A DNA stretch of 63,470 nt, filler included, from Hausera hauseri (Eukaryota), in NCBI GenBank assembly GCA_046269625.1. It is 12 parts of 12 records of this genome, joined end to end, with 100 filler letters (N's around TTAATTAATTAA, not from the genome) between each part and the next. Parts side by side here need not be neighbours in the genome. Positions count along the whole stretch, not along the records: positions 19,088 to 23,133 come from JBJURY010795757.1; 11 more parts are not named here. One strand, 5' to 3'. Position 1 is the first letter of the stretch; the number at the start of each line of letters is the position of its first letter. The notes beneath the pieces are model-generated. The model was not told the origin of the DNA, searched no databases, and worked only from the letters and a program-made list of their open reading frames with translations. This document shows positions 14,574 through 53,825 of this stretch, piece by piece. Both the position numbers and the translations under genes were made by a program.

Positions 14574-15499
14574 TTAAGGATTAAAATCNNNNNNNNNNNN
14601 NNNNNNNNNNNNNNNNNNNNNNNNNNNNNNNNTTAATTAATTAANNNNNNNNNNNNNNNNNNNNNNNNNNNNNNNNNNNNNNNNNNNNTTATTGCACACC
14701 CTGAAATACGTCTCGTTTTTCATCCCTATACTACTTACGTTTGATCCTTGCCATAATAGGAGTGTTACATGTTTTTCAATGTTTCAATCAGGCGATTTAA
14801 TAGTGGGCTGTTTTTTGTAGAGAAGAACATAATTATTCTTACATTAATTCAGTATATATGTTATGTCAGAGGTTCAGTACTTGTCTTTCACACCGGACAA
14901 CCATAGAGACGAGGGGTTAAACCATGGGTATGTCTGTACTGAGGACACTCGATTTTCGCCAGTGATTTGAACAAACAAACAAAAGTCCTGTGTCAGCAGG
15001 GTAGATATGACGAAACACCAGACGGGCGATAAACTTTAAGGCTAAATGTGAACATTTCGTGCAGTAAAGATCCCACGCAGTTGGAATCGAAATATAGTAG
15101 TTCAGACATGATATACTGAAATAGTAGATCTCAAAGTGGCTTGAGAAATTATATTACATCCTCAAAGTGGCGTAAGATATAGTTTAATGTAGCTAGCAAC
15201 ACTATAGTAATTGGAACCGTGCTACGAGATTTATAGAAGTAACAAGACAGATTAGAAATTTGCAGAACGAGGAATACGTAAATGAGAAGGCGAGGAAACA
15301 TGGAATTAACTTTTTAAAGATGTTTCCAGTAACTGTGTACAGTTTAGGAAATATATTCCATTTAAATGTCATTTTTAAAGGCACGTTTTTTTTTTTTTAA
15401 ATTTATTTTTTTATTGAAATAATAGTTATGTAATTTGTTTTGTATAAATTTAGTAGTTAATTGTTAGGTAATAGGGGTTTTGTGTTATGTCTTTGTTGT

Positions 15500-16620
15500 T
15501 GTAGCTGGTGTGTATCTTCTTTTTGATGACATCAGCATCTTGTGCCTTATTTTCTTTAGTTACGTGCAGTAAGGGACTGTGCTGGTGCCGTGGCTCGGGG
15601 ATGCTATCGTGTCGTATACGGGTAGTGGGGGCAAGGATATTTTGTTGTTAAGGGCATGTTTCTCAAGGGGATGGCAGTGGTGTAGGGGGTCTTTTTCGTG
15701 TTTAGGGGTATATTTTTTTCTGTTAAGAGCGGGTTTCTTATGTCGGCGGGCGTGGTTTAAGGCATCTTCTATGTGTTTAGGGACACGGAACCGGGATATT
15801 TTCTGTTAAGGGCGTGTTTCTCATGGTTGCGGGTGAGGTTTAGGGCGATTTCTTCGTGTTTAGGGACAGATCGCGACATTCAATGCCGTATTTTGTGTGT
15901 GGGCAAAGTCAAGGGAACGGGTTATGGGGTAGTGGTGTGTTCTGTCTTTGTAATAGTAGATGATGTCTATCTTCTTTTTGATGACCTCAGCGTCTTGATG
16001 CCATAATTTCTTTAATTACGTGCAATAAGGTACTGTGGTGGTACCGTGTCTCCGGGTTGGTAGTGTGTTTGGTACCGTGGGTAGTGGGTCATGAAAAGGG
16101 GTATTTTCTGTTAAAGTCGCGTTGCTTACGGTTGCGGGCGTGATTTGGGGTAACTTTTGCATGTTTAGAGACACGTAAGGAGTGATATTGTCTGTTAAAC
16201 TCGCGTTTCTTATAGTGCTGCCGGTGGTTTTGGTCGGCTTCCTCGCGCTTGTGCGTGTCTTTGCGAGTGAATCGGGACACGGAAGCGGGATATTTTCTGT
16301 TATGGTCGTGTTTCTTAGAGCGCTGTCGGTGGTTTAGGTCGTCTTCATCGCGCTTATGGATGTTTTGGGAGCCAGTCGGGTGGCATAAAAGAGGGATATT
16401 TTCTGTTAATGTCGCGTTTTTTACGGCTGTGGGCGTGGCTTATGTCGTGTTAAAGGGTATAGAAGAGAGATATTTTCTGTTAAGGGCGTGTTTCTCAAGG
16501 ATTTAGGACAGGTTCTTCGTGCTTAGGGGCATATTTTTTTTTGTTAAGGTCGCGTTTCTTACGGACGAGAGCGTGGTTTAAGTCGGGTTCAGGGACCTGT
16601 AAGTGGGATATTTTTTTAGT
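15500..16620. repeat. Degenerate G/T-rich repeat array (core GATATTTTCTGTTAAGGGCGTGTTTCT)
   Basis: About 10 variably spaced copies of the core, plus a higher-order duplication (15512-15650 vs 15966-16110). Confidence 0.8.
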
Positions 16621-17439
16621 TGCCACGGGTATCTTAACGTTTTATACTGATTCTAACAGCGCGTGGATATTTTCCGAAGTAAAAATCTACTAACAACATT
16701 TTTTTTATCGCCCGCTTAGAGGAACATAGAAATATTACCAAGCTTATCCAGCAAACAATGAAACATTCCGACAAACAAAACACACTATACGACCAACACG
16801 ACCCTTAACAATGGGCATTTATTAGAACAACGAAACGTGTTTGTCCACTTACAAAGCCTTCCCTTTTCCAGCGAATCGCTCAAGCGGAACATTTTAACAT
16901 TCATCTAACCAGCATTCCAGCGTTCGTCAGTGGACAAAGCCCGATAACGTCTCGCTTGTTCGCTGTCCAGCGAAGTGCAACACACCTGCCTGACCAACAT
17001 TCCAGTGTTTGCCCGCTTACAAAGGCTTCCTTTGTCCAGCAAAATGCTCAAGCGAAACATAACCGCATGTCCGAGTGACCGTATCTGGCCAGAGGTTAAA
17101 CGCGGCGGACAAAGGGATCCGTTGTTCAGTCAAATAAATCACGTCTTTTAACATTCATCTAACCGCCCTTTTACAAATATAGAAGCTTTTACAAAGCTAA
17201 CTTTTTTACTAACCTTTTAACTTGTTTCGTGAGCAACAGCATTTACAGACAAAGCAGAGTCAGCGTTTTCGTACACAACACGTGATCGATGACCTTGCTC
17301 AGTGACCCGTATCACCGAGCTTAAAAACATTTGACATGTTTGACAAAGCTTCGTGACTTATTTGTCTAATGACGCGTAACCTTTGTCACGAGGAAAAGAT
17401 TTTCGACAACGACCATTCGTTAACGACAAGGCCGCCCGT

Positions 17440-17860
17440 TTCTTAACGGGATACGTTTTCCACTATACGAACATGACGTTCGCACTAAAAGTCTAACTCG
17501 TCCGTCGTTACAGGACGACATTTTCCACTAAAAGTCCAACTCATCCGTCGTTACAGGACGACATTTTCCACTATATGGACACGAAGTCCGTCATTTATGT
17601 ATACAATTATATAGTGTAACGATAAGACTTTTTCAATAAAATGCCGACCTGTCCGTCGTTACAGTGCGACATTTTTAACTAAAAGTCCAATTCGCCCGTC
17701 GTTACCTGGCGACATTTTCCACTATACGGGCACGAAATCCGTCATTTATGTTTACAATTATATAGTGTAACGACAAGACTTTTTCACTAAAAGGCCACGA
17801 TACCCGTCATTAAAGCGAGGACTTTTACACTAAAAGACCATCATGGCCGTCGTTAACGGA
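17440..17860. repeat. Tandem array of ~40-bp units (TCCGTCGTTACAGGACGACATTTTCCACTA) nested in a ~150-bp period
   Basis: Near-identical blocks at 17532-17650 and 17682-17800. Confidence 0.85.
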
Positions 17861-17899
17861 CACAAACAAGCGGTTGTTACAACCGACATCTTTGTTGTC

Positions 17900-18720
17900 G
17901 ACACGAACGTTGTTTCAGTCGACACGCGATTACTAATAAAACATTTCTATGGCATTACAACTTTACCATGACACACGATTACTAATAAAACATTTCCCCA
18001 ATACAACTTTACGACGAAACACGATAGTGTAGACTGACAAAACAAGCAACATTTCCCTATACAACCAACATTTCCTACAAACCCACCAAACTTCCGACCA
18101 ACAACGACACTCGCTGACGAGGCTAACTGACAAGCAATATTTTCCCCACATTCATCCAGCACTAAAACTTTACCGAGACACTAAGAAACACAACATTTCC
18201 ATATCCAACTATCACTACAACACTAAAAAACCACCAACGACACACGATGATGATGCTAACTAACAAACCATTTCCTCTATACAACTGCCACTAAAACTTT
18301 ACCAAGACACTAAAACAACAACATTTCCCACAAACCACCAAGCCTCCGATCAACAGCACTTGCTGATGATGTTGATTTGTAGACAAGCAACGATACTGTC
18401 GACTGACAGAACAATACCACATTCCACTGTCACTACAACATTATCGAGAGACTAAAAAAGCAACATTCCCCTATCACTAAAACTTTACCAACACACAAAA
18501 CAACCAACATTTCACTCAAACCACCAAACTTCCGACCAACGGCACACGATGATGATGCTACCATTTTCCCCATCATCACATTCCCCTAGCACTAAAACTT
18601 CACCAAGACACTAAAAAACACAACATTTCCCTATACAAACGTCATTACAACACTACAAATTCACCAACGGCACATGATAATGATGATGATTAATAATGAA
18701 ACGAGGACCACTAACATACA
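17900..18720. repeat. Degenerate C/A-rich repeat array (CACTAAAACTTTACC; AAACCACCAAACTTCCGACCAAC; CAACATTTCCCTAT)
   Basis: Motifs recur at ~18160, 18290, 18475, 18590 and at ~18080, 18330, 18520. Confidence 0.75.
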
Positions 18721-21572
18721 ATTATGATGATAGAAGACAAGAAACATGTCGCTATACAACTACAAGACCAACTTTACCAAAAGACATGATAAAAAAATTG
18801 ACTCAAGTTTGACGATGCAGAAGAAGAAGAAAGGGCCACAAGGGGGCCACAAGGGTCCCAAATGACCACTTCACTACCTCAAGTAAGCCCCACAGCAAGT
18901 ATTGACACACTTTATACAAAAAAAACAAACAAGAACTCGCGTAATTATGCGGCTCCAATTAGTAGTATAGTAGTGGAATTGGGGTCGNNNNNNNNNNNNN
19001 NNNNNNNNNNNNNNNNNNNNNNNNNNNNNNNTTAATTAATTAANNNNNNNNNNNNNNNNNNNNNNNNNNNNNNNNNNNNNNNNNNNNTTGAACGGAGAGG
19101 GACGGCTTCAGGCCAGCGAGAAGCACGATCCATCATAGTGAGAATATGTTGATACCCGTTGTCGGAAGGTAAAGATCCGACGAGATCAAGATGGACGGTA
19201 TGAAGACGTGATGTTCATGGGAAATGGTAAAGCGGCGGTTTAAGATGTTTTCTGACTTTGTATTTTTGACAGTCGACGCATTCTTTAACCCAACCCTGTA
19301 CATATGTGCGCATTGATGGCCAAACTACATTACGTTGGAGCAAGCGAAAAGTTGCTTTCGAGCCTGGATGATGGAGTGAATGCGTGTGAAGAAAATCTGG
19401 CTTTTGCAGAGAAGGATCGAGAATGATTTTTTATTACCGGAGTTAGGTGTGTCGTATGCGATTCTATCAATGATTTCGAAGGATTTGAAAGAGTTAAGAA
19501 TATCTGCAGACGGTTGATTGAGCTTTAGAATTTCAATAGAAAATATTGGCTCGACCGTAATTGAGCCCATCGACCGTGATAGAAAATTCGCAACCAAATT
19601 TTCAGTACCTGAAATATACTTTATGACAAAACTAAATGTGTATAGGTATGATATCTGTCGTTCCTGCCTCGGTGATGGTTGTTTTAGTGACATGATGTGT
19701 AGCAGACTTGAGATCTATTTGGATGATAAATGGACGAGAGAGGAGGAGATGTTTGAAATGTTTTACTTCCAGAACTATGGCTAGTAGCTCACGATTGAAT
19801 GCAGAATATCGGCTTTCTGGTTGTGTAAGTTTTTGAGAGTAAAATTCCAAAGGTTCATTGACGCCGTTGGAAATTTGGTGTAGTATTGCACCAGTAGCTG
19901 TGGAAGAGGCATCGGTGGTAAGTATTAGCTCCGCGTCGGGTTTTGGGTAGGCCAGTATTTCGGCAGTTTTTAGGCCTTCGCGTAAGTGATCGAATTTGAT
20001 GACTAAATTGGGAGTCCATTAGATTAACTGTCTTTCCTTTCCAGATAAAAGGTGTGCGAAAGATGCCGTAAGCTCAGAGCAATGTGGTATGTATTTATGG
20101 ACAAAATGTAGTGTACCAAGAAAACTTCTCATATCTGTAGTGGTCGTTGGTAGTGTTACGTTTTTTAATTGCTGTAGTCGATCAGGTTATGGAGAGTGAC
20201 CGTGAGAAGTAATAATGTGGCCTAAGAAATTGACGCGTTTCTGAAAGAAATTGCACTTGGCGAAATTAACTTGTACGTTGCTATGATGTAGTTTGTGAAA
20301 AATGATTCGGAAGTGCCCATGGTGTTGTTTCACGGATTTGGAGGCAAATAATATGTCGTCGATGTAGGGATGAGCAAAATCAAGGCCTGAGAGAACGGTG
20401 TCGATGTGGTGTTGGAAAGTTTGTGCTGCGTTACGTAAACCGAATGGCATAAACATGTATTCGTAAAGTCCAAATGGAGTGATGACATCAGTTTTGGGAT
20501 GTCATCGGGTGAAACGGGAATTTGATGGTAGGCTTTGTGCAGATTTATTGTGGAATAGGTATTGGTGTTGTTATGACTCTGCAGGATGTCTATTATGAGC
20601 GGTAATGGGTAAGCATCCATCATGGTTAGATTGTTCACTAGACGGTAATTGCCACACGGTCGCAAAGTACCGTCCTTTTTTGCCACTACATGTAATGGTC
20701 AAGCCCATGGTAATTTGGATTTCCGAATGATACCAGATTTTTTGAGTTTGTTAAACTCTAATTCCACGGCTTTTCGTCTACAAGGCGATAATTGTCTCAC
20801 CTTTTGTCTGATAGGTCTTTGATGTTGGGTGACGATGTGGTGATAAGTTCTTGACAGGGGCTTTAAGCTAGAGTCTTTTTTGAGTATGCGACAGCAAGAA
20901 GAATTGATGTAATATTTGAGATTGGAATCTAGTGATAAAAATGATTGAGGCGTATTATCGGAGGAGGCGGTGACTGTGATTGGCGAAGAGTGAACGACGT
21001 TGTCGCCGTCAACGTTCGGTTTAACCGATTGTTTCAAAATTGACTTCGGTGTTTTAGGTGTAATTGAAAAAATAGATAAACTACTAGATGTATCGTTATT
21101 GACCGATAAGTAATTTGCCAAATTCATGTGTAAGTTCGCAGTCGTTTGGCCTGTTGCGTTGTCTATTAGACTGTTGCTAAAGTTCACGACGGAGTCTCTA
21201 CGTGGCAAACGACCATAATTGCAGTCAACTAGCAGGTCGTATGCGGCCAAAAAATCTGATCCTATTATTGCCGATTTAATGTTGACCACGTGGAATTTCC
21301 AAACAAACTTGCCTGGTAAGTTTGAGAATATAAAGACTAGTTCTGTGGTGCCTGTGATTCGCAAAGGTTGACCGTTGGCGGCGAAAAGCGGAGGGAAAAA
21401 ATTCACGTTGATGTATGGACAAAAGACAAAGGTAGGAGTGAAAAGGCAGCTCCTGAGTCAATGAGGAAATCGATATGTGAAGCATTGTTAGGGAACAGCG
21501 TAGCTTTTAACAGAAAAACTGCGGAAGCAATGTTAAGACGGCCAGAATGTGCCGTAACATCTAGCGGCCTTT

Positions 21573-21582
21573 TTAGTTTTTT
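21573..21582 (-). promoter_or_regulatory. -1 ribosomal frameshift site (gag-pol)
   Basis: A AAA AAC TAA at the Gag stop; the -1 frame reads LKRPLDV...FLIDSGA (protease). Confidence 0.75.
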
Positions 21583-22639
21583 GAAGATTGTGAAGGGAAA
21601 GAAGATGACTGATAGGCAGCAGGAGGAGGAAAAGAAAATGAAGAAAAACTGGAGTTGTTTTTGTAATGTTTACATCTTGGAACGCACGATCTGGCTAGAG
21701 AATGGAATTTTGTGTGATAAATACAGATAGGGCTGTCCACCGCAAAACGCTCGTCGTAAAATCTACAGCCCAAGAGACATTTTTCTGCGTTTCTACGAAA
21801 TTTCTTGTGATAAAAACAAATTCTTCGTCTGTCAGGAGATTTTGAACGAAATGAGTGCCTGGAGGGGCTACGCTCACGCGATGACGAGTCTCACCTCGCC
21901 GAGACATAGACAGATTACTTAGTTGGGCCGTGATGGCGGAAACTGAATGTTGCAGAGTATCGTATTGTTTCTGCATTAATTGTAGTTGCTGTGCGAAGAC
22001 AGTGGTGTCTACGTAAGATGAGGTATGCGTAGATGCTGCAGCTACGGGTTGTGAGTTGTTAGTTTGCAAGATTTCGAAGCTTTTATCAGCCAATAGGGCA
22101 AGTTTTTCAATCGCCGTCGAGTCATCAACGACAGTAAGGAGAACTTTGATGGAAGTGGGTAAGGAGGAGAGGAAATAACGACGAATCAAGTCCGCACTGT
22201 TGGTGGGGGTAACGCCAAGAGCACTTAGGTGTAAAATAGAGGTTTGCAAAAAGTCAGAAGGCTTTTGATTGCCTATAGCATGTTCGTTAAAGTACTTCTG
22301 TATTATATTGTCAATCGATGGATCGGTTATATGAAGAACAGACTCCTAAAGCATGTCATATGATGTCGACGAAGTAAGAATATCAGTAAGATTATTGATT
22401 TGATGTTTAATATTTGCTGGGAGAAGAAGTAAAAAGCTGTTGGCGCGCAAGAAAGAATCGGTAATATAATTGGCTTTAAGCCATTGTAAATGAAATTGTA
22501 GCCAAGTGCGGCTTAAATTAGTTTTATCGAGGAATAACTCTGTGCAAGGAAGGTTAGGAGAAACAGATTGTGCATAGTCAGCAGGGCGACGACCAGATCT
22601 TGTTTTGGACGAATTTTCATTAGAAGGATCAGGTTCCGA

Positions 22640-22858
22640 ACCGCCTAGGAGGTGAAAGTGAAGGGTGAGATGAATGATCGGAGAAGTGAAGGAAGAAAGT
22701 GAGTCAGATGGGTGTAGCACAGAACCATGGTGCAACAAATAAAAGTCGGAAGTGTGTAGGAAAGAGGATAGAGACATATAGTGGGCGTAAGCAATGTCCG
22801 TGTTACTAGTGTGTATAGTAAAAATATGTGTGTTATTTTTAAAAACAAAAAAAGAAAG
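22640..22858 (-). other. Ubiquitin-like domain ending in di-Gly at the Gag N-terminus
   Basis: 73 aa: LSFFVFKNNTHIFTI...DFYLLHHGSVLHPSDSLSSFTSPIIHLTLHFHLLGG; compare ubiquitin [36 protein letters not shown]. Confidence 0.6.
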
Positions 22859-23997
22859 TGGTTGAAGAGTGATGCCAGAGGCATGTTGTGGCGCACGGGT
22901 CACGGACACGCCTAGGTTTCCGATCAGATGATGCTTGGGCCGCATATCCGAAAGAGTAGTCACCACAACCGATCTCCGATGGCCAGTGTTTATCGAAGAC
23001 TGTTCGGGTGCTCCGTATATGTCAATAAGTTTAGAGAGTCGTGGATGTTTAATTAACCACACCTTATAATTTGAATAACCATAGAAAGAATCGGTCTAAC
23101 ATGCATCATCATCAACAAAAGGAATATCATCCCNNNNNNNNNNNNNNNNNNNNNNNNNNNNNNNNNNNNNNNNNNNNTTAATTAATTAANNNNNNNNNNN
23201 NNNNNNNNNNNNNNNNNNNNNNNNNNNNNNNNNATTAACTCATTTTGTGAAAATTTTGATAATATACATAATCTAAACTAATGATTAGATTAGTTTCACT
23301 GTATTATTATCCATTATAAATTGTTGTTCCAAAATTATTCCATAGCTTCCTCTTTTTTTGAGATGTTTATTTATTCTTTTCACATCCTAGTACTTCGGGT
23401 GCATTATCCACGTTTTCTGTTGAAGTCTTTTTAGGAGCAGAACGAGGTGTTTCTCTATAATATCGTAGTAAGACTTTCTATGCCATTTTTTAACATACCC
23501 CTTGTCTCATATAACGTCACCGCAGTCTCTTCTCAAACTCAGGATTCAATTTCATTCATAGCCATTTTCCACCAATTACTGTCCTCTCATTACCTGCCAA
23601 GGGAATTTTTTTTTCTTCTGTTATGTTGATGATTCTTCGATGTTCTGCATCTTCTCAAAGAACGTATAATTAGTTTTCTTTGCCTTCTGGGAGATTCGTT
23701 GAATTGTGGCAAAACTTTCGGTAAATTTGCGCTGAAATATAAGCCTTGTTGGACTGTCAAAGAAAAGGACAATTTCTTTAGGGAAAAAAATACAGACACG
23801 GATGTATAAACATTTTTTACCCACTTTACACAGAACTCTCATTTCTCGGTGGAAACCAAGACAACGTAGAATCCAAGAAATGAACGAATTAAAACTCTAA
23901 TAAGCGGGGACTGGTACTGGCGCAAAGAAAGCTCACGATCAAATATTTGAGGACTTAGGGAGTGGTAGAGTTTGCGAAGTAATAACTAAGGCTAGAA

Positions 23998-24300
23998 TTA
24001 GAGTTTTTGGACGAGAAAGATACATAGCGGAGGAGAAAACAGTATAGTATACACAGACATGCTACAAATTTGAGAAGCTAACGACGACGGGTAATAAAAT
24101 CCAAGCGGATCGAATACTCTGACAACAGTCGGATGGACGTACACAGCAATCCAATGTTCGCCCGGCAACAATGAAGTGTGTGTATTGACAATAAAGCCTC
24201 CGGTTTTTCGTAAATCACGCGGCACACGGTCCAGTGGAAACAGGCCACGAAATTTCACTCCTAAGAGCAGTTTGCGTAGTGACTGAGCTTAGTGGAGCTA
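23998..24300 (-). pseudogene. Adenain-like cysteine protease (Maverick PRO)
   Basis: FRGLFPLDRVP...FIVNTHTSLLPGEHWIAVY...FDPLG; the C-terminal Q..S..CG motif is not recognisable. Confidence 0.85.
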
Positions 24301-24387
24301 AATGTGAATTAAGTATAATAGTAATAGTAGTAATAAATTACTTCATATTACGACGAAGAAGAAAAGGTGATACAAACCGGATTTTAT

Positions 24388-25600
24388 TTATACAATGGCG
24401 GTTCCGTTTTTTGTTATTTGAACTTCGGTATCAAATACACTGAAAATGTACATCACCGTAGATTGCTCCAACGCTTGAGCAAAGTGAATCTCCAGTCGTA
24501 GGTTTCCCTGCTGAGGTATTTGAGTCTGTTTAACGTCATAGTCTGGAGCCAGGACAAAGGTGAAGAATGGATAGGTGGACTTGAGCAAATTTATCGATAT
24601 GCCATTGTTGATGTTTTTGTTGAGCAAACCTATGTTGCGCACGATAGATTGCATATATGTACAAACGTAATCATTAGACTCAAAGTCTTCTTTGTACGCC
24701 TCAACGAAATCCGCATTCCGACAGAAATTGATGTAATTCACATTGCTATGAGTAAACGTTTCTGAATCGGGGGTATAACCGCCCGTTTGTTGAACAGTTC
24801 TTTAAAATGTAACGAGCACAAATTTCGGCAATTGCGTGTCGCCAAACAGTGCATCTTTGTAAAACGTAGTTGAAACTTTTGGTATGGTGTAAAACACGAG
24901 TTCTGTGCGTTGTATCGGGTAACAGGCATTTTGCATTTCCAAACTTAATCGATGTCCCATGAGGATAGATGGTTCTGCCTTTACTCGACGTACGTATAAT
25001 CGTGCCTCGGTAATTTTCAGCATGGGTTTAAGCTGTGCAACGGTGGTTTTCAAACAAAAGACATTGTCGCTGCATTTGAGCTTAATCATGTCTTTAACAC
25101 CGGGAAGTACGTATTTCGACTAATCGAAAAAGTGAAAGTACAGCGGTCCACACATGGTAAGCGGTTTTGATTCTGCTATCCATGCCTGATGGTTTGCCTC
25201 TGTGGTATTGTATCGTTTTCATGTCTGCGCTGTAATTCAAAGTCATTTTAATGAGTGCTTTGGTATTGTATGGACTGGTTCTGCCTTTGATTTTGACGCT
25301 GTTCAGAGTCAGTGAAGCCTCTTGGAACAGTGTGCGGAAAAATTAATTGGCCGGTGTTACAGTGTCTGTTGTAGCGAGAACCGTTGACTAATCCTTTTTA
25401 ACAATGACTTTTACATAGAACAGCGTATCATTCAAATTCAGGTATTCATTGTCCGATGCCATAATGTTGAACTGAATGTTAATGTTATCGTCCGTTGAAA
25501 CCGAATCAACGGGGTAGATATCTTTAAATGCCGCACTGTCAATAACAACTTACGGCGTCGATTTGCCAAATATACACAATTAAGATTTTGCAGATTCCAT
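24388..25600 (-). pseudogene. Double jelly-roll major capsid protein (Maverick PY/hexon-like)
   Basis: MESAKS*LCIF...IQFNIMASDNEYLNLNDTLFYVK...PAN*FFRTLFQ...KITEARLYVRRVK...YPIQRTE...LPKFVLVTF...GNLRLEIHFAQAL. Confidence 0.88.
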
Positions 25601-25619
25601 TTGTCTATCAATCAGTCAA

Positions 25620-25960
25620 TCAACCGAAAATCGTACGACAACGACGTTTGTTTATGGTTGAAAAGCTAGCTGATATACCACGTCCATGTTTTCTTATCAA
25701 GCCGCTGTTGGCGAATTGTTTTTTTACTGATTCAACGACTCCCGGTGCAGTGCTTTTTATTTCCGACAAGGCGTGTTCCTTTAGTGATGGTAAAATCGAT
25801 TTGTTTTCATATATTACGTCGTGTGCAGTTTTTGCTACCACTGCACCAATGCGCTTCAACACATGAAATGCTAAGAGTGCCAATGTATGCAACTATCCAT
25901 AGCCATACTCTTTACCAACGAAATACGGTAGTTCACCGCCCTGCTAGGGTTGACTTTAAA
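25620..25960 (-). pseudogene. Small basic Maverick protein (PW-like core/cement protein)
   Basis: FVGKEYGYG*LHTLALLAFHVLKRIGAVVAKTAHDVIYENKSILPSLKEHA resembles the G.G.G..F..L.R...P.LK pattern; lies just upstream of the MCP. Confidence 0.55.
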
Positions 25961-25981
25961 TGGAAACAATTTCAGAATCAA

Positions 25982-26509
25982 TCATGTTGTTGGATTCGAC
26001 GGAAATAAAGAGTTAGACCGGTTGTAATACCGTAGGGAAATACAATAAGGTAGCCCGCGCTCACATCGGATATTCACTTTAACATTGTTTATAGATGTAG
26101 ATGCCATAAAATGTAAGTATTCCACTAAAATAAAAACACTGATCTTGCCGTGTACACCGTAATATTTACAGGGCGTGCAAATGGCCGATTCTGCAACTGT
26201 GATTTTATTGTCAGTAAGTGTCAGAGGACAAGGATGTGTTTTGGTTTCAGCAACAGTCTTGTTGTAAGTTATTTTCATACTGCCTTTTAATGTTACCCGT
26301 GCGTAGGGAAAGTTAAATTCCGTCAATGCAATCTCCCATTGTCCAGCAGGTAAATCCAAAGGATTGTTCCCATCTACAACGTATTCCTGAAGGAATTGTT
26401 CAGACGAGTCGTCGGACAATTCTTTCTCGGCAACACCATGTAAATATTCATTATCTCGATGATGATCATGGTAATGACGCAGTTTGTTTATTATCGACGT
26501 TGACGACAT
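25982..26509 (-). pseudogene. Minor capsid (penton)-like protein 2
   Basis: NPLDLPAGQWEIALTEFNFP matches the P..L.G.WEVAL.E..YP motif. Confidence 0.6.
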
Positions 26510-26539
26510 AGAAAATGTAACGTTAAATGTGTCGTTGAC

Positions 26540-27548
26540 CCGAACAGAAATTTAATGGGTCCCCAAATTGCATCAATCATATACACAGAAATATTGTGCA
26601 CAATATTGTGAGACAATGATAAGTATATCGGTTTGAATATATTAACGTGAACATTTTCATCCGATGTTTGGACGTGTCAGAATTCAGTTCGATAAACGCC
26701 AGTAGTTGTTTACGTTCTCCACCAACGACTACGGATTCGATTAAGTCCGTTAAAATGTTGATTTGGTGAAATGCTCCATAGAGTTGTGGTTTGTATTTGG
26801 CAACAATAGATCGTCCAGCAATGTTTTGATAGAATTCGCGTTGTGCTAAACCCAGATTCCGAGCCAATAATTCATCAAAGGCAAAATTTGTAACATTGTC
26901 ACTGAGTGTAATTGAAATATGACCATCTGCGTTTATTTCACATGTCCTTACGGCTAATGTAGCCATTTTCTTGAAGTATTCACAAAATTCTAGTTTTGTC
27001 TCCATAAATAAGTCATATGGTAAAATATACGAACGAAATTCTGATTGTGACCTTATCCAGTTCACTACAATCGCTGTTGTCATATCAGAGGAAAGGTGCA
27101 AATTTTAAGCAATTATAACATGTCCACCTAGCCGTAAACCTTTCGAGTGTACATTGACTTAATGAAACTACAATGCCTGAGCATCAGCCATGGATTCAAA
27201 CTGCTATTCCACGGGATGTCTATGTGTTACTTTCATACGGCAATTTGAAAAATAAGCATAAACCGAGAAATTGTATCGCGAATAATTGCGAAGGATATAT
27301 TTGTTAGAGTCTGGGATTAACTGTAAACGGCTTGAAATAGGGCATTTTTCTAGTCGAGTAAAGTAAATACCGCTTTTCTTACGTATTTATTTGGGTGAAA
27401 ATGTAAATGTGAAACCCGTTAGAGCCACTTCCCAGGTTCTCGTGCGTAATTTGAGCGGTCGGTCCAAGTTTATGGTAAACTGTTCATCTGAATTGTTGTC
27501 ACTCTGTGATGATGACTTTTCACTATCAAGTACCAAGTAAGTGTTCAT
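26540..27548 (-). pseudogene. Minor capsid (penton)-like protein 1
   Basis: MNTYLVLDSEKS...DNNSDEQFTINLDRPLKLRTRTWEVALT; C-terminal INILTDLIESVVVGGERKQLLAFI. Confidence 0.75.
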
Positions 27549-27559
27549 CATTCAATTTG

Positions 27560-28480
27560 CGATGCAAATATCAAGCTGGGTTTGGAATATCCGTGCTACA
27601 TCATGAAATATTGTTTATTCTAATCTTTGCCGCATAAACGTATAATTTCCTGAATACTATATGCTTGTTCGTAGAATTTACCACGTATCTCCTCACCATT
27701 CTCACCTTCCAAAACGTACATGATGGGTGTTTGTTTTGTGTTGATTGTTGTCATTCGGAACAACTCATCGCTGCAGTTCTGACTGAAATTCTTGATAAGT
27801 GGAGTTGTGCTCAGCTCTGAAATACGTACATAATAGCAAATTCTGTTTCGGACGACGATTAACTGCTTGTTGTTGGTTTTGGTAAAGCCAAACGTCCAAA
27901 TCATCGATTACATCAACCGGCCATAATCCATTGATGCCACAATGTGTCGAATGATTTAATGCGTGGATAATATCCGGTAGTACATCTACCCAGCGTTTGT
28001 TGCCTTGCTTCGTAAAGAATTTGTTTAGGTGACCGCACAATGTTCGACTAAATCGTTCAACGAATGCAGCCTTGTATTGGGAAAACACAATGTAGTGCTT
28101 TACGCCGAATCGTATCAAAACAAATGCGACATGGGAGTTGTAAAATTCTTTACCAAAATCCGTTTGTACATGTTTCGGCGGCTCTTGTTTAGTTAATCTG
28201 TGAACAGCGTCGGCAATCTCTTTACCGCATTCGGATTTGACAACAATTGCATGTGCCAAACGACTGAACACATCAATACATGTCAGCATCGTACCAATAC
28301 CCATCGTTGATGCTGGCTTACGGTATCATTTCCATAATATCCATTTGCCATAACAATATTCACACCTGTTCGAAGCACAGAACTGATTAATCATTTGACT
28401 GTAGTGGTTCGTTTTGATACATGTTTCCTGCCGGACACCCACTTGGTAGGTTTATGTTTAACAATTGTTCCTTGGAAATT
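27560..28480 (-). pseudogene. Maverick rve integrase with a degenerate C-terminal chromodomain
   Basis: WQMDIMEM, LTCIDVFSR, VQTDFGKEFYN, KAAFVERFSRTL, RWVDVLPDII, GEEIRGKFYEQ, YSIQEIIR. Confidence 0.9.
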
Positions 28481-28529
28481 TTTTATTTCGAATAATGTCG
28501 TCGATTTTGGAATTTGTTTTTGGACATGT

Positions 28530-28733
28530 ATACATTTCTGATTGAAAATATCTGTTCGTACACGCATATCATCTGAACACTGTTGGGTAAAGTCAGTAAA
28601 CAAATATACATGCGGTTTGTTCGTAGCATCATGATATGCATCTATCAAGTAGGCTAGGTTGTGAGGAAATGCTTGTCGTGCAACATAATCAATGATAGTC
28701 TGATCACGGGGATTTTTGAACAACACCAAATAG
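28530..28733 (-). pseudogene. Maverick packaging ATPase, C-terminal part
   Basis: YLVLFKNPRDQTIIDYVARQAFP...AYHDATNKPHVYLFTDFTQQCSDDMRVRTDIF. Confidence 0.88.
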
Positions 28734-28840
28734 NNNNNNNNNNNNNNNNNNNNNNNNNNNNNNNNNNNNNNNNNNNNTTAATTAATTAANNNNNNNNNNN
28801 NNNNNNNNNNNNNNNNNNNNNNNNNNNNNNNNNCAAGGAA

Positions 28841-31800
28841 ATGGCAAATATTATTCATTGGCTAAGGATACGTACCCGTGTCCCGTGTGTTTTATTCAAA
28901 ACACATGCCCATACGCCGACTTTTATGAGATGCACAAGCGTCATCTCGGTCCGTGCACGTTGTCTAAGAAGATGATGGTTGTGCATTGCCGGATATACCC
29001 GCGAAACTGTAGTAGTGGTAGAGTGTATGACGTTGATTGTTTCCCTAGTGTAATGGAGCAGTACTATGGTGCCAATTCTACGAACAATTCTACTATGAAC
29101 AATTCTACATCATTCACAAGGACCACTGGAACCAGTTTCAGAAATCCAAAAAGGAAATATTAATGGACGCAGAAAGGAGCAGCAGCAGCAGGAAACGTCA
29201 GGCATCAGCAAGCCTTGACAAATACTTTCAAAACAACAGAAGTCAGAAACAGCAGCAGCAGGAATGTGAACCGCCCATAACTGTCAAGAACGACTTGAAC
29301 AGATCGTACATGCACATAACGGTGGACATGTCGACGAAAACAGCAACGTAATTGAAGGGTGAATACGCTAATGTGCGTAACCGGTTGGAATCAGAGGTGA
29401 CCAAATTTCAACAACACCACTATAAACTGGAATGTTATGCACTTGCAGAATTTGAAAATCTGCATGGTGACAGGAAACAATGGTACATGTCACATCGGGC
29501 CGTACCATGCTCTGAGGATTTTATTGCCAATGTAGTCGAAAACCTTGACGAAAAAATCGCCAATTACACCGAAGAGGGCAGTGGTTGGCGAAATGTAAAG
29601 ATTGTCACTTTCGGTTTTATTTTGACCAAGACGAATGACATGATTTACCTGTCTGGATGTTTATTCATATCGACACCTGCATTCTGAAGCAATCTCCGGC
29701 GATAGTGAATGTACAACATACTAACGACGAATATTGCTTTATTTACAGCATTCTGGCCATAGTGAAATATAATCAAGTGTCCAGACATCATGCAAATTGT
29801 CCGAAGTAGTACAGTAAGTATTTCTAAGAATTGGACTATTACTAGTGTTGGATGTCGATGAAACTCAAAACCATTCCGGATTTTGAACGGCGTAATCCGA
29901 CACTGGCAATAAACGTGTTCCACTTCAACATAATCGTAGAGATACCGGTGGATAAGGAAATTTACAAGAATCCTCACGTGGACATAATTTACCGCAGTCG
30001 AAATCCAATTAGACGTCCAGTGAATTTGTTGTTGTTGAAGAATGAAGAAAAGTTTCATTACACGGCCGTGACCAATTTGGGCAGAATGTTGAACATGCAG
30101 CATGACCAGTTCTTCAAAAAGGTATATACGGCGCAAATGGTGTCCCGTGTGTCTGCATGATTTCCGATTAAATGAGACATGGAAAAAGCATGTGGCGCTA
30201 TGCAGGCAAACTTCTTTAGGAACCACAATATGTTACGCTAGTCAAAAAGGAGTTGAGATTTAGTGACTGGTCAAAAAGCGGACAGATATTGAAGCAATTC
30301 TACCACGGCACAATGAATACGATAAAAAGCACGTTTCAATTGCCCTCGGTACGTTGCTAATACCAATAAAAGCCGCCGCACAACCGCAGTATTACGTTTT
30401 CCGTAGTTGGAACTGTGTACGTGATTTCCTGCAGCAGTTGGAAACCATAGTGGAAACGGAAATCGCGTCGTGATATCGCAACAACTGCAAGAAGCCATTG
30501 ATTTGGTAGACGAATATCAACCGTTGCTTTTCACTGTCACCAATTAATACTACCTGTGCCACAAAATAATACCATTTGATGCACCAACGGCTCGTACCGT
30601 ATCACGACCATTTCACCGGTCGACACTTGGGAGCAGCATGCAATTTATGCAATTTAGCAAGGCGAGTGCGACCATTCCTGCCGGTGATCTTTCATAATTT
30701 CCGAGGTTATGACTGTCACCGTATTCTCAAATGGGCAATTAACGGCTCTCCGCAATGGGAACTATCCATAGGATAATGGAGAAATACCTATCGCTGTCGG
30801 CAGGCTTAAACCGATTCCAGGTACGCTTCCTTGGTTTATTGCAATTTCTCAATGAATCATTTCCAAAGCTAATAAATGCCTTGCCAGATGTGCCAATAGC
30901 ACTGACACAGTTCCCTGCACATATTGCACGCTGCAAAGACATTTCCATATGACTTTCCAACATGATATGAGCGACTTCGGATAGCAGAGGAATTACCGCC
31001 GCGATGGACAGGTATCACAGAAGATGAATACCGGAGAGCACAAGAAACGTGGATAGACTTTGGTTGTAGAAACATGTTGGATTACATGCTCCAGTATCTT
31101 AAACTGGACGCGTATTTATTAGCCGACGTGTTCCAAGCATTTTGGACCAAAGCGCTGGCGGATAATAGGTTGGAGCCCTCAACTTTTATTCCATGCCGAG
31201 AATAAGTTGGGTGTCAGCTCTAATGCTGCTGGATCGAAACACTGAGCTGCTGCAAGACCCGGAAATGTACCGGCTGTTTGATGTTGTTATTCGCGACGGT
31301 ATGACATTTGTCAACAAGGATCAGATCAGTGCTACCGATACCACATCACTGTTCTATATTGATATTAATAATCTGTACGGCTGGGGGCTTTCACAATCAT
31401 TGCCGTACGGTTCATTCGAATGGGTTGTCGACAGACAAGATCTGGACGACATAATGTAAAACATACCACGAGCAGACATGGCAGGCTCAGTCGGATACTT
31501 GATGGAGGTCGATCTCGTGACACCAGATAAGCTGCATAACGTTTTGGACAATTTGCTGGTCGCACCATTTAACCAGTGTCCGTCAGGCACAAAAGTGAAG
31601 AAACTGCTCATGACGCATGAACCGAAGCTGAATTACCTGGTCCATTGGTGTTTGCTACAGTTCTATATGCAGTTCGGTGTATGCGTCACACAAATGCATC
31701 GTGCAATCCGATTTGCTCAGGCTCCAATATTCAAGGTGTACATAGATGGAAATTTGGAGAAACGAGCCGCAGCTTATACAAATGTTGAAAAGAACTACCT

Positions 31801-32589
31801 ATGCTGGAAAACAGTTCCCTGTACGGAAAAACTGCAGAATCTGAAAAAACAGCTTAATGTACGCCTACATAACTCTGAAAAGTGGCTAGTTACCTATAGC
31901 AGCTAGGTACAGTTTCGGCGGTCAATGCTCATTGCGATGGATTGATTGCAGCGCTGTTAAACATGGAAGAAATCGTTTTGAACCGGCCAAGTTACATCGG
32001 GCAAGTGATATTGGACCTGTGAAAGTTGCGGATGTATGAGCTACAGTATCGCGACTTGGCACGTTGTCGGCAAATGTTCGGCGGCAAATGCAAGATCAAT
32101 ATAATTGCCGGTAACACAGATAGATATTTGTTGGAATTGAAATACGTCAATCGCGAAAAACTACTGCGGCAAATGATAACAGACGGATTACTGGAAACGT
32201 TCAATTACCCATAGAATCATCCATAGTACAGCAAAGCCATTACAAACAAAATCGTCTGATTCAAGAATGAAAGTAAAGGTCGGCTTCAGTATCAGGAATG
32301 GGCATTTCTACTGCCAAAATGTTCTAGTCTTTTAACTGACTGTAGACCGAAAATGCGCGACAAAGGTGTTCAGTAGGCCCAGACGGAAATACATCACGGT
32401 GATTATCGCCGTGTCTATGAAGAAGAAGGACAATCAAAGGCTGTTGTGTCTCAAACGATCATCCAATCAATTGAGCACCAGCTGTATATGGTGAACAATA
32501 CAAAAGTCGCTTTATCATGGAATGACGATAAGCGTAAAGGAATGGGACGGAATAAGAGTTTGGCGTATGGACATTGGCTTTTGGAATAA
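28841..32589 (+). pseudogene. polB: Protein-primed DNA polymerase B with an EndoVII-like insertion (Polinton type), decayed
   Basis: EEGSGW, NDEYCFIYSILA, HDHFTGRHLGAACNLCNL, VIFHNFRGYD, YLKLDAYLLADVF, YIDINNLYG, NS.YGKT, AGNTDR (degenerate YxDTDS), KVALSWNDDKR, SLAYGHW; many frameshifts. Confidence 0.92.
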
Positions 32590-33803
32590 ATTAGGTGAAT
32601 TCGGAATGAATTCGGTGCTGATGGTACAGACAGATCAAATTACTGTGACAATTCATTGTGATCTGTGTTTTCTATAAATAATGTATATTGTTCGTTATTT
32701 TTGCCTTTTGTTATCATTTAATTTATCTACGTACATTATATATTTAATTTAATGCGACAAGAAACAATATGAAAATCAATAAAATTAATTAGTCATATGC
32801 TAAAATCAAAACAAAGTAAGTCAAATCAGCACAAACTTTCCCAGCTTCCATATTGGTGATTTAATGCTTTGCAGATCCTTGTATCCTTTTAATTTCAATG
32901 TTAGATGGCCTTTAGCTCCTTCCGGTGGCAAAACCGCTTTTGCTGCTGCTACTATTTCTCCAGCATGTTAACTGACAATTTTCACCATATATCCTTTGAG
33001 AAAAATCGATGATGTATCTCGGATATAGTTCCTCAACGCGAAATAATTATCAACTTTTATAATTATCTCTTCCTTTGTATCCAAATAATCATCTGTGATC
33101 TTTTTCACCAATAGTCCATATTTGGTCAATTTGATTTTGACCGTTGGCGTCAATGGCAATTGAATAACGTTGCGCTGATAACGTAAGTTGTATCCATCAT
33201 TCAACGGGAATTTCTGGGTAAATATTCACTGTATAATTGCTTTTTTGATAGAGTCGCGGAACTATCACCTGCTGAATTGTTTTTCAAAGATATTTTTTAA
33301 ACAAGACAAACATGAAATGGAATTGCATTTATATTTTTACCATATTTATACATACCGGTTTGTTTTCATTGTAAACACTAGACATTTACTTTGTGAGTAT
33401 TGTCTCATATCACAATGATACAAACTACCTCCACCTCATTGAAGCCCATGACACTGTTTNNNNNNNNNNNNNNNNNNNNNNNNNNNNNNNNNNNNNNNNN
33501 NNNTTAATTAATTAANNNNNNNNNNNNNNNNNNNNNNNNNNNNNNNNNNNNNNNNNNNNTTTATGGCATTTGTTTATAGTTGTTTGCCTCTTACGTTTAC
33601 GCCCGCCTGCAGGCCTGCTTGAACCAAGCCTCATTATTCTACACCTAACTGGACTAGGACTACTTGATTTACTATTAATTGATAGACTACTGCTTATAGT
33701 AGGCCTATTTAAACCGTAAAGACTTCAAGCACCGCCGATTTGCCTTCTTCTTCTTCTAAAACCACCACTACCTTAATTATCAACAATCTCTTTCATTGTG
33801 TCA

Positions 33804-36800
33804 TTAGTACTTTTGTGATAACTCATATTCTTTGATCGAATAAAGCCAGAACCAAGTAGCGTCACGCGCGTTGTATCTTGATATAAATCCATCACCAAGC
33901 AAGTTCGGAATGAGCCCATGTCGAACAGTTGCTCCATAAGTAAGAATAATCTGACGAGCGTCCTCGAATCTGTTAGTAAGCAACAGCAGACCACGCAGAG
34001 CAATAAACGTATTACGGCCCCAGTTTCTCCAGATGCCCTCGGTGAAATGCGGAAATCCGGCAGACAACGTGGCTCGTTCTCCTTCGTAATTGATTGCCAA
34101 TGGAGGCAATTGACAATTTCGCACGACCGAGCACAGCATGATCGAATTGAGACCGAGTGCTTTAACGAAACTCGATCCAAAGATGACAAGATCTCCCAAT
34201 CGATACCAGCATTCTTCCACAATGACTCAATACGTGCAGGACAGAACAGCGTCAAAATAAGCAGGAACGAGATACCGAGGCAAACGCTTGACAGTGTCGC
34301 ACATCTCCTTGAACCAATCACCAACGCCAGCGAGACTACCCCTGTAACGAGCCAGTCGCTGACACATGAAATCGATAAGCCAATTGCCCTCACGCAGGTT
34401 GTTACACAGCAGGTGACCAAGGTTGTTTTGTAATCGAATTTGTTCCATTTCCGAATAGTAACCCTGTATACCGCAAAACAGCAACGATCCGTACCCCGGC
34501 AAATGATACGAACCGGTGCCAGGGAAGTCGGCATTCTCCTCTGATCCACATCGAAACAAAAGTCGATTGAGATCGTAGATATTAAGATCTCCAAGTAACT
34601 CGCGCAATGTGGGAAGCACAGACGCATTGACGTTGACGTCAGGTACATCTGTAGATCTTGACAATTGTGCTTTCACCATAAGTTCGTGAATAAGATTCTG
34701 GCCCGTGCTGCTCGATCGGAGACGTGCGTTGAACTGCAGTGCCATGTCCGATTTTAGTTTGTCGATGTTCTTCTGATCTGACGGAGTCAGAACGACCTCA
34801 ACGACGACTACGCTGCCCGGTGGTAGGAACTTGAAATTTAGAATATCGTATCCAGTATCGCTGTCCGTGTCCAAAGTTATCATTTGTGACTTATCGGGCA
34901 TGATATCCTTACGTAATTCTACCGTCACTCCTGGCAAACCATTGATGTACTTTTCATTGCGCTTGAAAGAATCGACCATTTTTTCATCTCTTAACGTGCG
35001 TGCTTCAAAAATCACCTTTGAAACTTTACCAGACAAATGCAGAGATTTTATTGGCCGATGGGAAGGCTTGTGTCCAGGGTAGGAAAATGAACTGTGTGCT
35101 ACCATGACGACGGTAATCAATTTGTTCGGATTGTATCGGGATATTGCCACAACATCTCCATCCAATTGGTCGACGAATATTTCTGCATAATTCTCCGCAG
35201 CTAGTTTCTGATGAAGCGCATTGATCGCCGCACGAGCTTTCATTATTCCTGTATCTATGGTGATGCCGTTATTCCAACTGGAGTATGGCCGTGTCTCGTG
35301 AACAACATCAATGTAGTGCGGTACCATTTCGTCATAGCCTCTAGTACTTCCGATAGCGCAACAGGCCATATTGACAATGGCAGCAGAAGTTAGGATATCG
35401 AATGGAGATCGTTTGTGGATCGGGGATTCATTGTCGTGAGTCATGTCATAAAACAAAGCATGGGCAATGGATGGCTGAAGCAATGCTGGATTCTGTTGAA
35501 CGAATAAACCAATCGCCTGGCCACCGTATTTGTGAACCAGTCGGCCTTGATCGTTGCAGTTCCATGCAGCCAGAGCTTCTCGGATCAGAGAATTAATGCC
35601 GAGTTTGTTGACAAATACGTTATCAATAGCTTCGCTACCGGTAAACAATTCAGCAACGATGTAGAGATCCGGACGGACGGCTCGAGCTCGGTCGAGCATG
35701 TACTGTGCAACATGGATTGGTGTGCTGTGGCAATTATCCAACCGAACGGCATGGAATATGCGAGCTGTTAGTTCCGTATATTTCGTCATATGTTGCCACA
35801 GGTAAGGACTGTCACTCGGATTATTGCCATAACGCAGTTTCACCGAATCACCGCATAAAATTAATTCCCGACGAAGGTAAACAGCCGAACCTTCTTCCGC
35901 AAAATTCACTAGTGGATTATCACTCATAACCCATCCTTTATATGCCATAATCCGCTGTTCATTATCCATTTTCACTTCACAGTCTTTAATTTCCTTCACA
36001 TTATCAAACGGATGGTAAAAGTATGCCCACATCAGAGGTGTATCAACGGTAACTTTCCCCAAACACAGTCCATGATCATCAATAAACCGATAATTAACAT
36101 TAGCAATAAAATTGGTAACTGCGGCTTCCAGATGATTTTGTACAATTCCATATTGCTCATCATTCAGCCGCTGTAAAATTGATCGCAGATCATTGCATGC
36201 TGCATCGACATGTTGATGGTTTTTGAACAGGTTATGCGCCGCAACTTCCATATCGATAGTAGCACCAAATCGACGGTAATTGGCATGCAACAATCGAATT
36301 TCACCGGGCTTATAATGCACTTGTTTGCTACTGAGATATTTACGGAAATTATCAAGTTCTTGATCAATGTGAATGAGGAAAAATTCGACGAATTTCACCT
36401 TGTTCACTTCTTCCCAAAGAATAGATCGAATCGTATCGACGTGTTCTGGTCGACTGACGTAATTCGTCAGTCCGCGATTTTTGTATTTCTCAGCGGCAAC
36501 GTCCAGTGTCAAATTCCAGACAACCCGATCCATTAAATAAGCCGGTCGTAAATGCGGTGAATTAACTACGTTATACGCACTTTCCGGATGTTCGTGAATC
36601 CATGGACTGTCGCTAGAAGTGTGATTGAACACCAAATCGGTCATTGACAAACATTGGTGATTCTGATGCATATCCTTAATAAATGATTCAATCATTTCCC
36701 ATGTAACGTTGACTTTTTTCGTTGAAAACCACGGATTGACTTTCAACTGATCACGCAACGAATAAGCCGATTTGGAATAGCCCAATTCCTGTAGCGGTGT

Positions 36801-37301
36801 AAAATGAACCATGTTGTATTTTCCTTCGTATGATGCTTTTAACTTCTCCGGCCATTGGGGAAATGCGCCCATATTCTTCGACAAATATGTTTGCAAACTC
36901 AATCCGTCTAATTCAAATGAATTTTTTGAATCGTCCGAATGAAAACTGAATCGCGGATCAACAATGAAATATCCTTCACCGCATTTGTTGCCAATATCCG
37001 CCGAGCCGTCTTTCGTGAAATAAAACTGAAACGAACCGGAAACCGATACTTTAAATTCAGCATGATTGTCAAAACAATCGTGATCATTTGACGATGGGGA
37101 CGGGTTTAAAACTTCCAATTCTTGATAATTTTCTCGTATGAACACATCGTTTTTAGGGAAATTCGTAAACAATCGAATTAGTTCTCCTTGTAACGTATGA
37201 CCAATTGCCAATCGAATGTACGTATCTTTTTTAACTCGATATAACTGATGCTGGTTGTTCATACCATCTTGTAATACTAAAACACTAACAGCTTTTTTCA
37301 T
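33804..37301 (-). pseudogene. AGL: Glycogen debranching enzyme, intronless, with a nonsense codon and 3' truncation
   Basis: YNMVHFTPLQELG, DLVFNHT, GDSVKLRYG, RLDNCHSTP, VAELFTGSE, DMTHDNESP, GSTRGYDEMVP, AGFPHF, HGLIPNLL, RYNARDATWFWL. In-frame TGA at 34229-34227 (the same frame continues); homology ends at ~33830. Confidence 0.92.
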
Positions 37302-38029
37302 TGGCAAACGCTTTCTCAATCGTTTAAATGAAAACTGATTTGGAAATCAATGAGTTGTTAAATTAGTTTTAGAAACAAATAAATTGAAATACATCAGAAA
37401 TAATTAAATACAGAAATAAATTGAAATTTGTAAATTTTTTGATTATAACCGTGTGGGGTTCTGTAGACAGGGATCGGATTCGCCCCGATATATTCTGTAT
37501 ATATATTTTGTACATCTATATGTTTTTGTTTTAATATCGCGGTAACGCGAAATGAAAAGTTGAAAATTTTTTGAAGTTAAAAATATATTTTTACTTCCCT
37601 CGAAAGCAATTTTGTTTTTCACGATTTTGACCAAATGGGTAGACAAAAATTGAAACTAGTTTTTAAAATACAATGTATTCCGGCTATTATACAGAAATTT
37701 TATGCTATGCAATTGGTGCCTCTGGAAATATCAAAGTCGTTTTCCATGCACCCAAAAATGCAGGTTAAACCTGACATTATTATACTTTTCGCTAATAGTT
37801 TTAAGAACTCTTCGGCCGCTGAAATCAACAATGCAGTTGGAGATTTCGGCTGATGGCGGAACGAGGTTATACGGACATTTTTAATGATGCCTATTCTGGA
37901 GTATTATTAGAGTTTGATGTTGGTTGAATATCGATGTCGTTTGAGTTTGGTTTTCACTCTTTCGTCCTCATGTTTTCATTAAAGTCATTTATCTGAATGT
38001 GTAGACGCACCCACCACGGAATGAATTTT

Positions 38030-38137
38030 TTAAGGCGGGGAAATCGGATCCTACTATGGATCCGACCCGACGGCAACGGACACCCGGCCATGTCCAACCA
38101 AATGTGCCAGAGGGCGCTGACCGCTGTGGGCACTACA
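38030..38137 (-). repeat. LTR-start fragment of the CsRN1-like family
   Basis: 38084-38137 is visibly similar to 44350-44404 (TGTAGTGCCCACAGCGG vs TGTGGTGCCCACAGCGG). Confidence 0.6.
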
Positions 38138-53125: not shown

Positions 53126-53825
53126 CGAATCGTTTCCTCTGCGATTTCCAGTAACATCTCGCAGCAGATATCCGAATCTGTTGTTATCAAAGAAGAATCT
53201 ATTGTGATGCTCTTCTTTTTCAAATAGCTTTGTCCAGTCTACTTCTCGGGCAGTTTCCTGGCAGCCTTCCTTGCCAAGCTAGTAACCTTGTTAAATTCAT
53301 TTTCTCGATTCGGATCGGTTTTGATGGCCAAATATAGCAACACTTTTCTCAGTTCCTCTATGGTATTTTCTACCATCATTTTATCGCTTAAAGTACTTTT
53401 GGTTGATTTACACCAAAGGTTCTTCATGGCCTTTGCGGCGTTCGCTATGGCCTTCTCTTTCTCGTCTAATATATCACCACCGAGATTAGAGTGGTTTACT
53501 ATTCGTATCAAATTTGTTATAAGTTCGTTCAGGTCCTCATTATTCGCATTAAAGTTTGGTATGAACATCTGCTTCAATTCCCTAATTAAATCTCCATTAT
53601 AATCGATCTCTTCCCGCATTTTCCGTGGTCGACCGACAGGACGCTTTTGTTTTGTTATAGCAGGTACACGGCCATGGGGGGTACTAAATTTTTATCGTAT
53701 TGTTCATTATCTTCGTCTGTCTACAGGTATTCTAAATATACTGCAGCATCTCGGACCCCTATTATTCGTCCTACTTGTTGTTCGGCTTTAGCCTTCCTTA
53801 TAGCTTTATCCTTAGTCTCGTTGAT

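Follow-up and report, generated by a model that had tools for sequence, protein, structure and literature searches.

We report that Gag of a CsRN1-like retrotransposon is preceded, in the same reading frame, by a leader that ends in a conserved Gly-Gly tail and bears remote homology to ubiquitin. These properties of the leader form the observed part of the explanation that we consider best. The other part, that a host deubiquitinase cuts after the Gly-Gly of the leader and so frees Gag, is probable, given the way in which the leader has been conserved. Papers identified here by PMC number are cited from portions of their text.

The window (the whole stretch of DNA that was analysed, positions 1-63470) consists of 12 short contigs separated by spacers of 100-base N/TTAATTAATTAA, and adjoining contigs are not true neighbours. 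The minus strand of one contig, 19088-23133, carries a single broken Ty3/gypsy element, in which Gag is followed by pieces of protease, reverse transcriptase, RNase H and integrase (Table 1). This contig is cut at both ends, and no LTR pair is readable in the element; furthermore, 22966-23133 has no long match elsewhere within the window. The frameshift in Gag is located near 21896-21851 (minus strand), and the A AAA AAC motif before the Gag stop is a candidate ribosomal frameshift site, a role that we infer and regard as likely.

Table 1. Features of the Gag-leader element on the contig at 19088-23133 (positions of the window).
Feature	Position	Strand	Remarks
Stop-free Gag frame upstream of the ATG, 50 further codons	22946..23095	-	79 codons upstream of the ubiquitin-like domain
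Primer-binding-site-like TGGTGACTACTC	22954..22965	-	First 7 bases of tRNA-Trp type; rest a partial match
Extension of 29 codons, nearest in-frame ATG (22945) to ubiquitin-like domain	22859..22945	-	Candidate start
Ubiquitin-like domain	22640..22858	-	73 codons, ends LHFHLLGG; 14/73 positions equal a natural ubiquitin
Gly-Gly codons, predicted cleavage site, then Ser	22640..22645	-	Invariant in six lineages
Pro/Ser/Thr-rich linker, 31 codons	22547..22639	-	Poorly conserved: 9-40% identity among lineages
Capsid-like Gag core	21896..22546	-	In-frame TAA at 22346-22348; relatives match DUF7041 weakly here
Gag C-terminus, other frame	21573..21890	-	Two CX2HX9CX3C motifs (21818-21765, 21725-21672) and stop codon
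A AAA AAC immediately before the Gag stop	21576..21582	-	pol in -1 frame
Broken pol: protease (DSG), reverse transcriptase (YIDD), RNase H (DAS), integrase (HHCC)	19088..21669	-	Cut by contig end

The original prediction of a CsRN1-type Gag is supported by the doubled CX2HX9CX3C motif and by the order and motifs of pol. This Gag motif is a signature of CsRn1-like elements (PMC2582038), and it is present in two copies in the window element and in nine of its ten relatives, with a single copy in the shorter P0004. The window element also shows the pol order by which CsRN1 elements are recognized, PR-RT-RH-IN with D[TS]G, YXDD, DAS and HHCC. The tRNA-Trp primer-binding site of the clade reads TGGTGA(G/C)CCCG(T/A) (PMC2582038); at 22965, the TGGTGAC of the element agrees with this consensus and the next five bases mostly differ. 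As its primer site fits in the first seven bases only and no LTR pair can be read, we call the element CsRN1-like. DUF7041 was matched weakly (E 0.00019-0.012) just after the linker in four of the seven relatives' proteins scanned. As in CsRn1, PwRn1 and AgCR (PMC2582038), the window element combines CX2HX9CX3C with the same pol order and motifs, a -1 overlap of gag and pol and a primer site whose first seven bases are of the tRNA-Trp type, but the doubling of CX2HX9CX3C sets it apart from those three. The portions of the main text of that paper used here make no mention of a ubiquitin-like leader in the clade. Two more CsRN1-like elements are found in the window at 45452-48554 and 60075-63470 (both on the minus strand), and in pol the three elements are 63-66% identical in every pairing. 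The sequence of both additional elements breaks off before reaching the N-terminus of Gag, and there is no second leader in the window.

The remaining contigs contain several other features. A stop-free frame of 1039 codons for glycogen debranching enzyme, apparently cut short, occupies 34230-37346 (minus strand); upstream of it, 76 bases at 38062-38137 are 80% identical to 44329-44404, which lies downstream of another CsRN1-like integrase, and the frame may be a retrocopy that lies next to part of an LTR. At 50663-53278 (minus strand), broken frames match the Monjiviricetes fusion glycoprotein family; that contig also has a reverse transcriptase frame, and we read the whole as an envelope-carrying LTR element. 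Two contigs of broken frames (23234-33459), with an integrase core at 27768-28325, resemble a Polinton. Families of degenerate direct repeats of 58-151 bases are found at 15481-18696.

A ubiquitin-sized segment of 73 residues ending in LHFHLLGG had been predicted ahead of Gag, and the minus-strand reading frame at 22858-22640 confirms it: the segment is in frame with Gag, and its Gly-Gly codons lie at 22645-22640. The limits originally given to the feature, however, need correction. Position 22858, proposed as the start of the segment, opens a CTT (Leu) codon rather than an ATG, and the nearest in-frame upstream ATG is at 22945, 29 codons earlier. This ATG lies 20 bases after TGGTGAC and 102 codons ahead of the end of the Gly-Gly, in a frame that is stop-free to 23095. 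Similarly, the proposed end of the feature at 22346 coincides with a premature in-frame TAA (22346-22348) within the capsid region, past which the same frame still encodes Gag. The linker, which had been described as acidic, holds four acidic, four basic and 13 Pro, Ser or Thr residues among its 31, so that only the stretch of its first nine is acidic. Shuffled sequences remained open for 79 codons upstream in 1.35% of cases, and for 50 codons (with the ATG allowed for) in 6.9%. In comparison with the 79 open codons of the window copy, 481, 632, 99, 135 and 21 residues stand ahead of the domain in five relatives; a Met is found 92-97 residues before the end of the Gly-Gly in P0001, P0004/P0008 and P0007, but not in P0005 or P0010. 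Also in this upstream region, 22 open-frame residues at 23074-23009 (minus strand) resemble the end of the GRAP2 SH2 domain, a match that is not significant (E=1.4).

Relatives were gathered by homolog searches and a cluster look-up in public protein collections, which together gave ten proteins (P0001-P0010). The Gly-Gly was counted in the eight that include the region, leaving out P0002, which starts in mid-capsid, and P0003. The latter, in which a DUF5777 beta-barrel piece is joined straight to mid-Gag without a leader, is probably an assembly chimera. In all eight, Gly-Gly ends the leader 18-37 residues before the capsid motif, and the suggested check of whether the pair is constant across family copies comes out positive for these relatives and the window copy. 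The tails read RLRGG in P0001, RLCGG in P0004/P0008, RLLGG in P0005 and in P0006/P0009/P0010, and the non-canonical KAYGG in P0007. By comparison, the bodies of five Gag proteins, 1520 positions in all, hold only two Gly-Gly dipeptides, and the presence of the pair at the same place in 8/8 relatives is therefore not due to chance. No leaderless CsRN1 Gag was present among the ten relatives retrieved, in a search possibly biased towards leader-bearing proteins, as two of the homolog searches used a query that contained the leader and so favoured such matches. P0007, the only relative among the matches that a crowded search by Gag alignment listed, was retrieved through the capsid part alone (query 97-169), and the query therefore cannot account for its Gly-Gly. 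No DNA loci of the relatives were found in metagenome or viral collections.

For comparison among lineages, P0004, P0006 and P0009 were excluded as near-duplicates of P0008 and P0010, which left six lineages, namely the window copy and five relatives. Identity among these is 15-52% in the leader and 34-73% in the capsid, and three of the 65 ungapped leader columns (Asn, Gly and Gly) are invariant. The residue that follows the Gly-Gly is S, T, S, M, G and N in the six lineages; the Ser that had been put forward as the N-terminus of mature Gag is therefore not conserved, and a conserved Lys at this site was rejected, since it is found in none of the six.

We are highly confident, from the comparisons that follow, that the leaders are remotely homologous to ubiquitin. 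A profile built from the six leaders can be aligned with residues 2-76 of ubiquitin and needs no long gaps; its best single-domain E-value is 0.002 (the E-values for polyubiquitin in this search are inflated by its repeats), and 58 of the best 60 of its 98 matches at E<=10 are chains of ubiquitin, ubiquitin fusions or SDE2. An untrimmed whole-protein profile gave 21 matches, all of them on the leader: 18 to ubiquitin, eS31 or eS30, two to Bem1 and one to prefoldin, each with E of 0.13-6.6 and none significant singly. The Bem1 matches are to PB1, a beta-grasp domain. Against a reference set drawn from 121 viral loci, which holds 93 distinct natural ubiquitins, the leader profile had a median score of 10.6 bits, which none of 3000 shuffles reached; when the profile was shortened by its last six residues, 12 of 3000 did. 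With HHalign, the leader profile matched ubiquitin with a probability of 24.6% (E=8e-4) and did better than each of 60 column shuffles, although without the tail it did not beat the column shuffles.

The contribution of single leaders to this signal is uneven. When each was scored against a ubiquitin profile, the shuffles that did as well numbered 3/1000 for P0007, 5/1000 for both P0001 and P0010, and 14/1000 for P0005, whereas the leaders of P0008 (114/1000) and of the window copy (247/1000) do not score alone. The window leader by itself also has no match in Pfam, and none in sequence searches of the PDB; it is the family that carries the likeness to ubiquitin. Thus, the description of the leader as ubiquitin-like is sustained for the family profile, but the window copy on its own does not bear it out. 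The protein atlas gave no usable match for the leader of either the window copy or P0001.

As to the source of the leader, that of P0001 matches one Pfam family only, PF13019, the Sde2 ubiquitin domain (E=0.0011), and two of the six leaders match this family; there is also a weak match to the SDE2 chain 8ro1_X (E 0.34-1.1). An Sde2-type domain is accordingly the best named match among these sequences, as a candidate donor only. An SDE2 ubiquitin-like domain proper was rejected, as the P0001 leader scores 19.9 bits against a family cut-off of 26.4 bits and no lineage of the six has Lys after the Gly-Gly. FUBI, to whose precursor the leader had been likened, was likewise rejected as the specific donor, with one eS30 match at E=0.37. 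Canonical ubiquitin was also rejected, with 11-16 identities over 68-76 positions and with the I44 patch, K48 and K63 absent.

Structure prediction, which had been suggested as a check for a beta-grasp fold, did not confirm this fold. Two AlphaFold models of the leader show the fitting order strand-strand-helix-strand-strand, but their confidence is low (pLDDT 60 and 58), and fold searches with both gave no significant match to ubiquitin. In one search, 19 of the 46 matches listed were ubiquitin-like, but at E 0.3-0.9 and with TM below 0.4; in the wide fold searches, ubiquitin was absent from the best 50 matches of each model.

When mapped on ubiquitin, the leaders are hydrophobic at 9-12 of 14 core sites and keep G47 in five of the six lineages. 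In the tail, the L69 site is hydrophobic in all six and the L73 site is Leu in five, while the R72 site is Arg in four, Lys in one and His in the window copy, whose HLLGG tail is non-canonical. In contrast, K48 and K63 are absent from all six leaders, and L8, I44 and V70 are not kept. In an alanine scan of human SDE2, loss of the equivalents of L69, R72 or the Gly-Gly blocked or impaired cleavage (PMC13572447), and because these same residues are kept, conservation of the leader fits cleavage by a host deubiquitinase. Cleavage of SDE2 is indifferent to what follows the cut site (PMC13572447). Pro after the Gly-Gly is inhibitory (PMC5381556), and Pro never follows the leader Gly-Gly in the six lineages. 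To judge from these alignments, the conservation of the leader is the pattern of a cleavage signal, and not that of a chain-forming modifier or docking domain. The window copy itself, which is broken and has His where its relatives have Arg or Lys, is thus a relic of the design.

In the mechanism that we propose, the precursor (and, by way of a -1 frameshift, Gag-Pol) would be translated from an upstream start, and the leader domain would fold as a beta-grasp. A host enzyme of the USP type would then read the tail of the leader and cut after the Gly-Gly, so that Gag would begin at the linker wherever translation had started and whatever lies upstream. The leader would thus be a processing signal that the precursor itself carries, comparable to those of SDE2, FUBI-eS30 and the fusions of ubiquitin to ribosomal proteins, rather than a chain-forming ubiquitin. 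It could also be argued that the freed ubiquitin-like domain is the working product, either conjugated to host proteins or serving as a decoy for ubiquitin enzymes, and that the release of Gag is a by-product. A tail of Arg-Leu-x-Gly-Gly is also read by activating enzymes, which counts in favour of this argument, and P0001 has the full RLRGG. However, the low identity to ubiquitin (only 11-16 of 68-76 positions), the loss of the I44 patch, K48 and K63, the fast and uneven divergence of the leaders and the length and variability of their N-terminal extensions all speak against an effector, which we consider quite unlikely.

It is also unlikely that the domain stays on Gag, as a folding aid or a matrix-like targeting domain, with an uncut Gly-Gly inherited from its donor. 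Many ubiquitin-like domains are indeed stable parts of proteins (PMC13572447), and the tail variants HLLGG and KAYGG are in keeping with such a role, but the Gly-Gly is invariant while nearly all other positions drift, and the usual ubiquitin binding patch has been lost. Finally, the leader could be unrelated to ubiquitin, the Gly-Gly marking either a flexible joint or the place where the aspartic protease of the element cuts. The failure of the fold searches and the weak scores of single sequences point in this direction; nevertheless, the profile match to ubiquitin is collinear from end to end and was repeated with the untrimmed profile, the signal persists without the tail (12/3000 shuffles; 3/1000 for P0007), and there is the match to the Sde2 family (PF13019), which together make an unrelated leader very unlikely. 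Release of Gag by a host deubiquitinase is the reading that we prefer.

A further question concerns what might be cut off from Gag together with the leader. In the protein model of P0001, residues 1-398 are a C-terminally cut CARM1 ahead of the leader, and in those of P0004 and P0008, residues 1-550 consist of DIS3L and an internal piece of CNOT1; no recognisable host piece stands ahead of the leader in P0005, P0007 or P0010. P0004 (996 aa) lies on a contig of 3554 bases, and P0008, a mosaic 98% identical to it, on one of 7611 bases. As P0004 fills 2988 of the 3554 bases of its contig, there is little room for introns or intergenic DNA. Nonetheless, these models need caution, because P0003 shows that chimeras occur in the same protein source. 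LTR elements are known to capture host mRNA (PMC5131818), and as in the models of P0001 and P0004/P0008, host-gene pieces, sometimes from two genes, are joined there to LTR-element sequence. That paper describes no release spacer in the portions used here, and the word ubiquitin is absent from its main text. It is possible, although doubtful, that the leader is such a spacer, by which captured host pieces (CARM1; DIS3L and CNOT1) are carried in frame before Gag and cut off by the host deubiquitinase so that the capsid still forms. If so, retrotransposons would have a route for expressing and shuffling pieces of host genes.

The polyproteins of LTR retroelements are matured by the element's own protease. 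If our preferred reading is true, the capsid would need a host deubiquitinase in order to mature, at which step the host could exert control, and a leader cut by the host would let the element fix the N-terminus of Gag regardless of where translation starts. The leader also adds a candidate class of natural substrates for deubiquitinases, beside SDE2 and FUBI. In the literature covered by our search, which lay outside Repbase reports and most subscription journals, no paper describing a Gag with a ubiquitin-like leader was found; other links concern Ulp1 and OTU proteases in DNA transposons and engineered fusions (PMC6431247, PMC2836005, PMC9703124, PMC3383448, PMC2642776). Of the ubiquitin-fusion precedents first invoked, that of pestiviruses stands (PMC5381556), but that of L1 elements was not found in this search. 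The parts of the design, cleavable ubiquitin-like precursors and pestivirus inserts, are thus known, and what appears to be new is their lineage-wide use on a retrotransposon Gag.

In summary, the Gag leader can be set beside three kinds of known system. The ubiquitin-eS31/eL40 and FUBI-eS30 precursors are linear fusions with Gly-Gly at the junction. The Gag leader is joined in the same way, and such chains dominate the matches of its profile, but its identity to ubiquitin is only ~16-21%, K48, K63 and the I44 patch are missing, and the extension at its N-terminus is variable. SDE2/Sde2 (PF13019; PMC13572447) is similar in having a diverged N-terminal ubiquitin-like domain that ends in Gly-Gly before the working protein, with the same tail residues kept. 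However, SDE2 exposes a conserved Lys (GGK) where the residue after the leader Gly-Gly varies (S, T, S, M, G, N), and it is a host gene for which cleavage by USP5 has been shown (PMC13572447), whereas cleavage of the Gag leader is predicted. In the polyproteins of pestiviruses (BVDV), a ubiquitin module of host origin likewise lets cellular proteases make the N-terminus of the next protein (PMC5381556). The BVDV inserts are near-identical to host ubiquitin and are found in single strains (PMC5381556), while the Gag leader is old and diverged, and has become fixed in an entire lineage, within which capsids can differ by as much as 66%.
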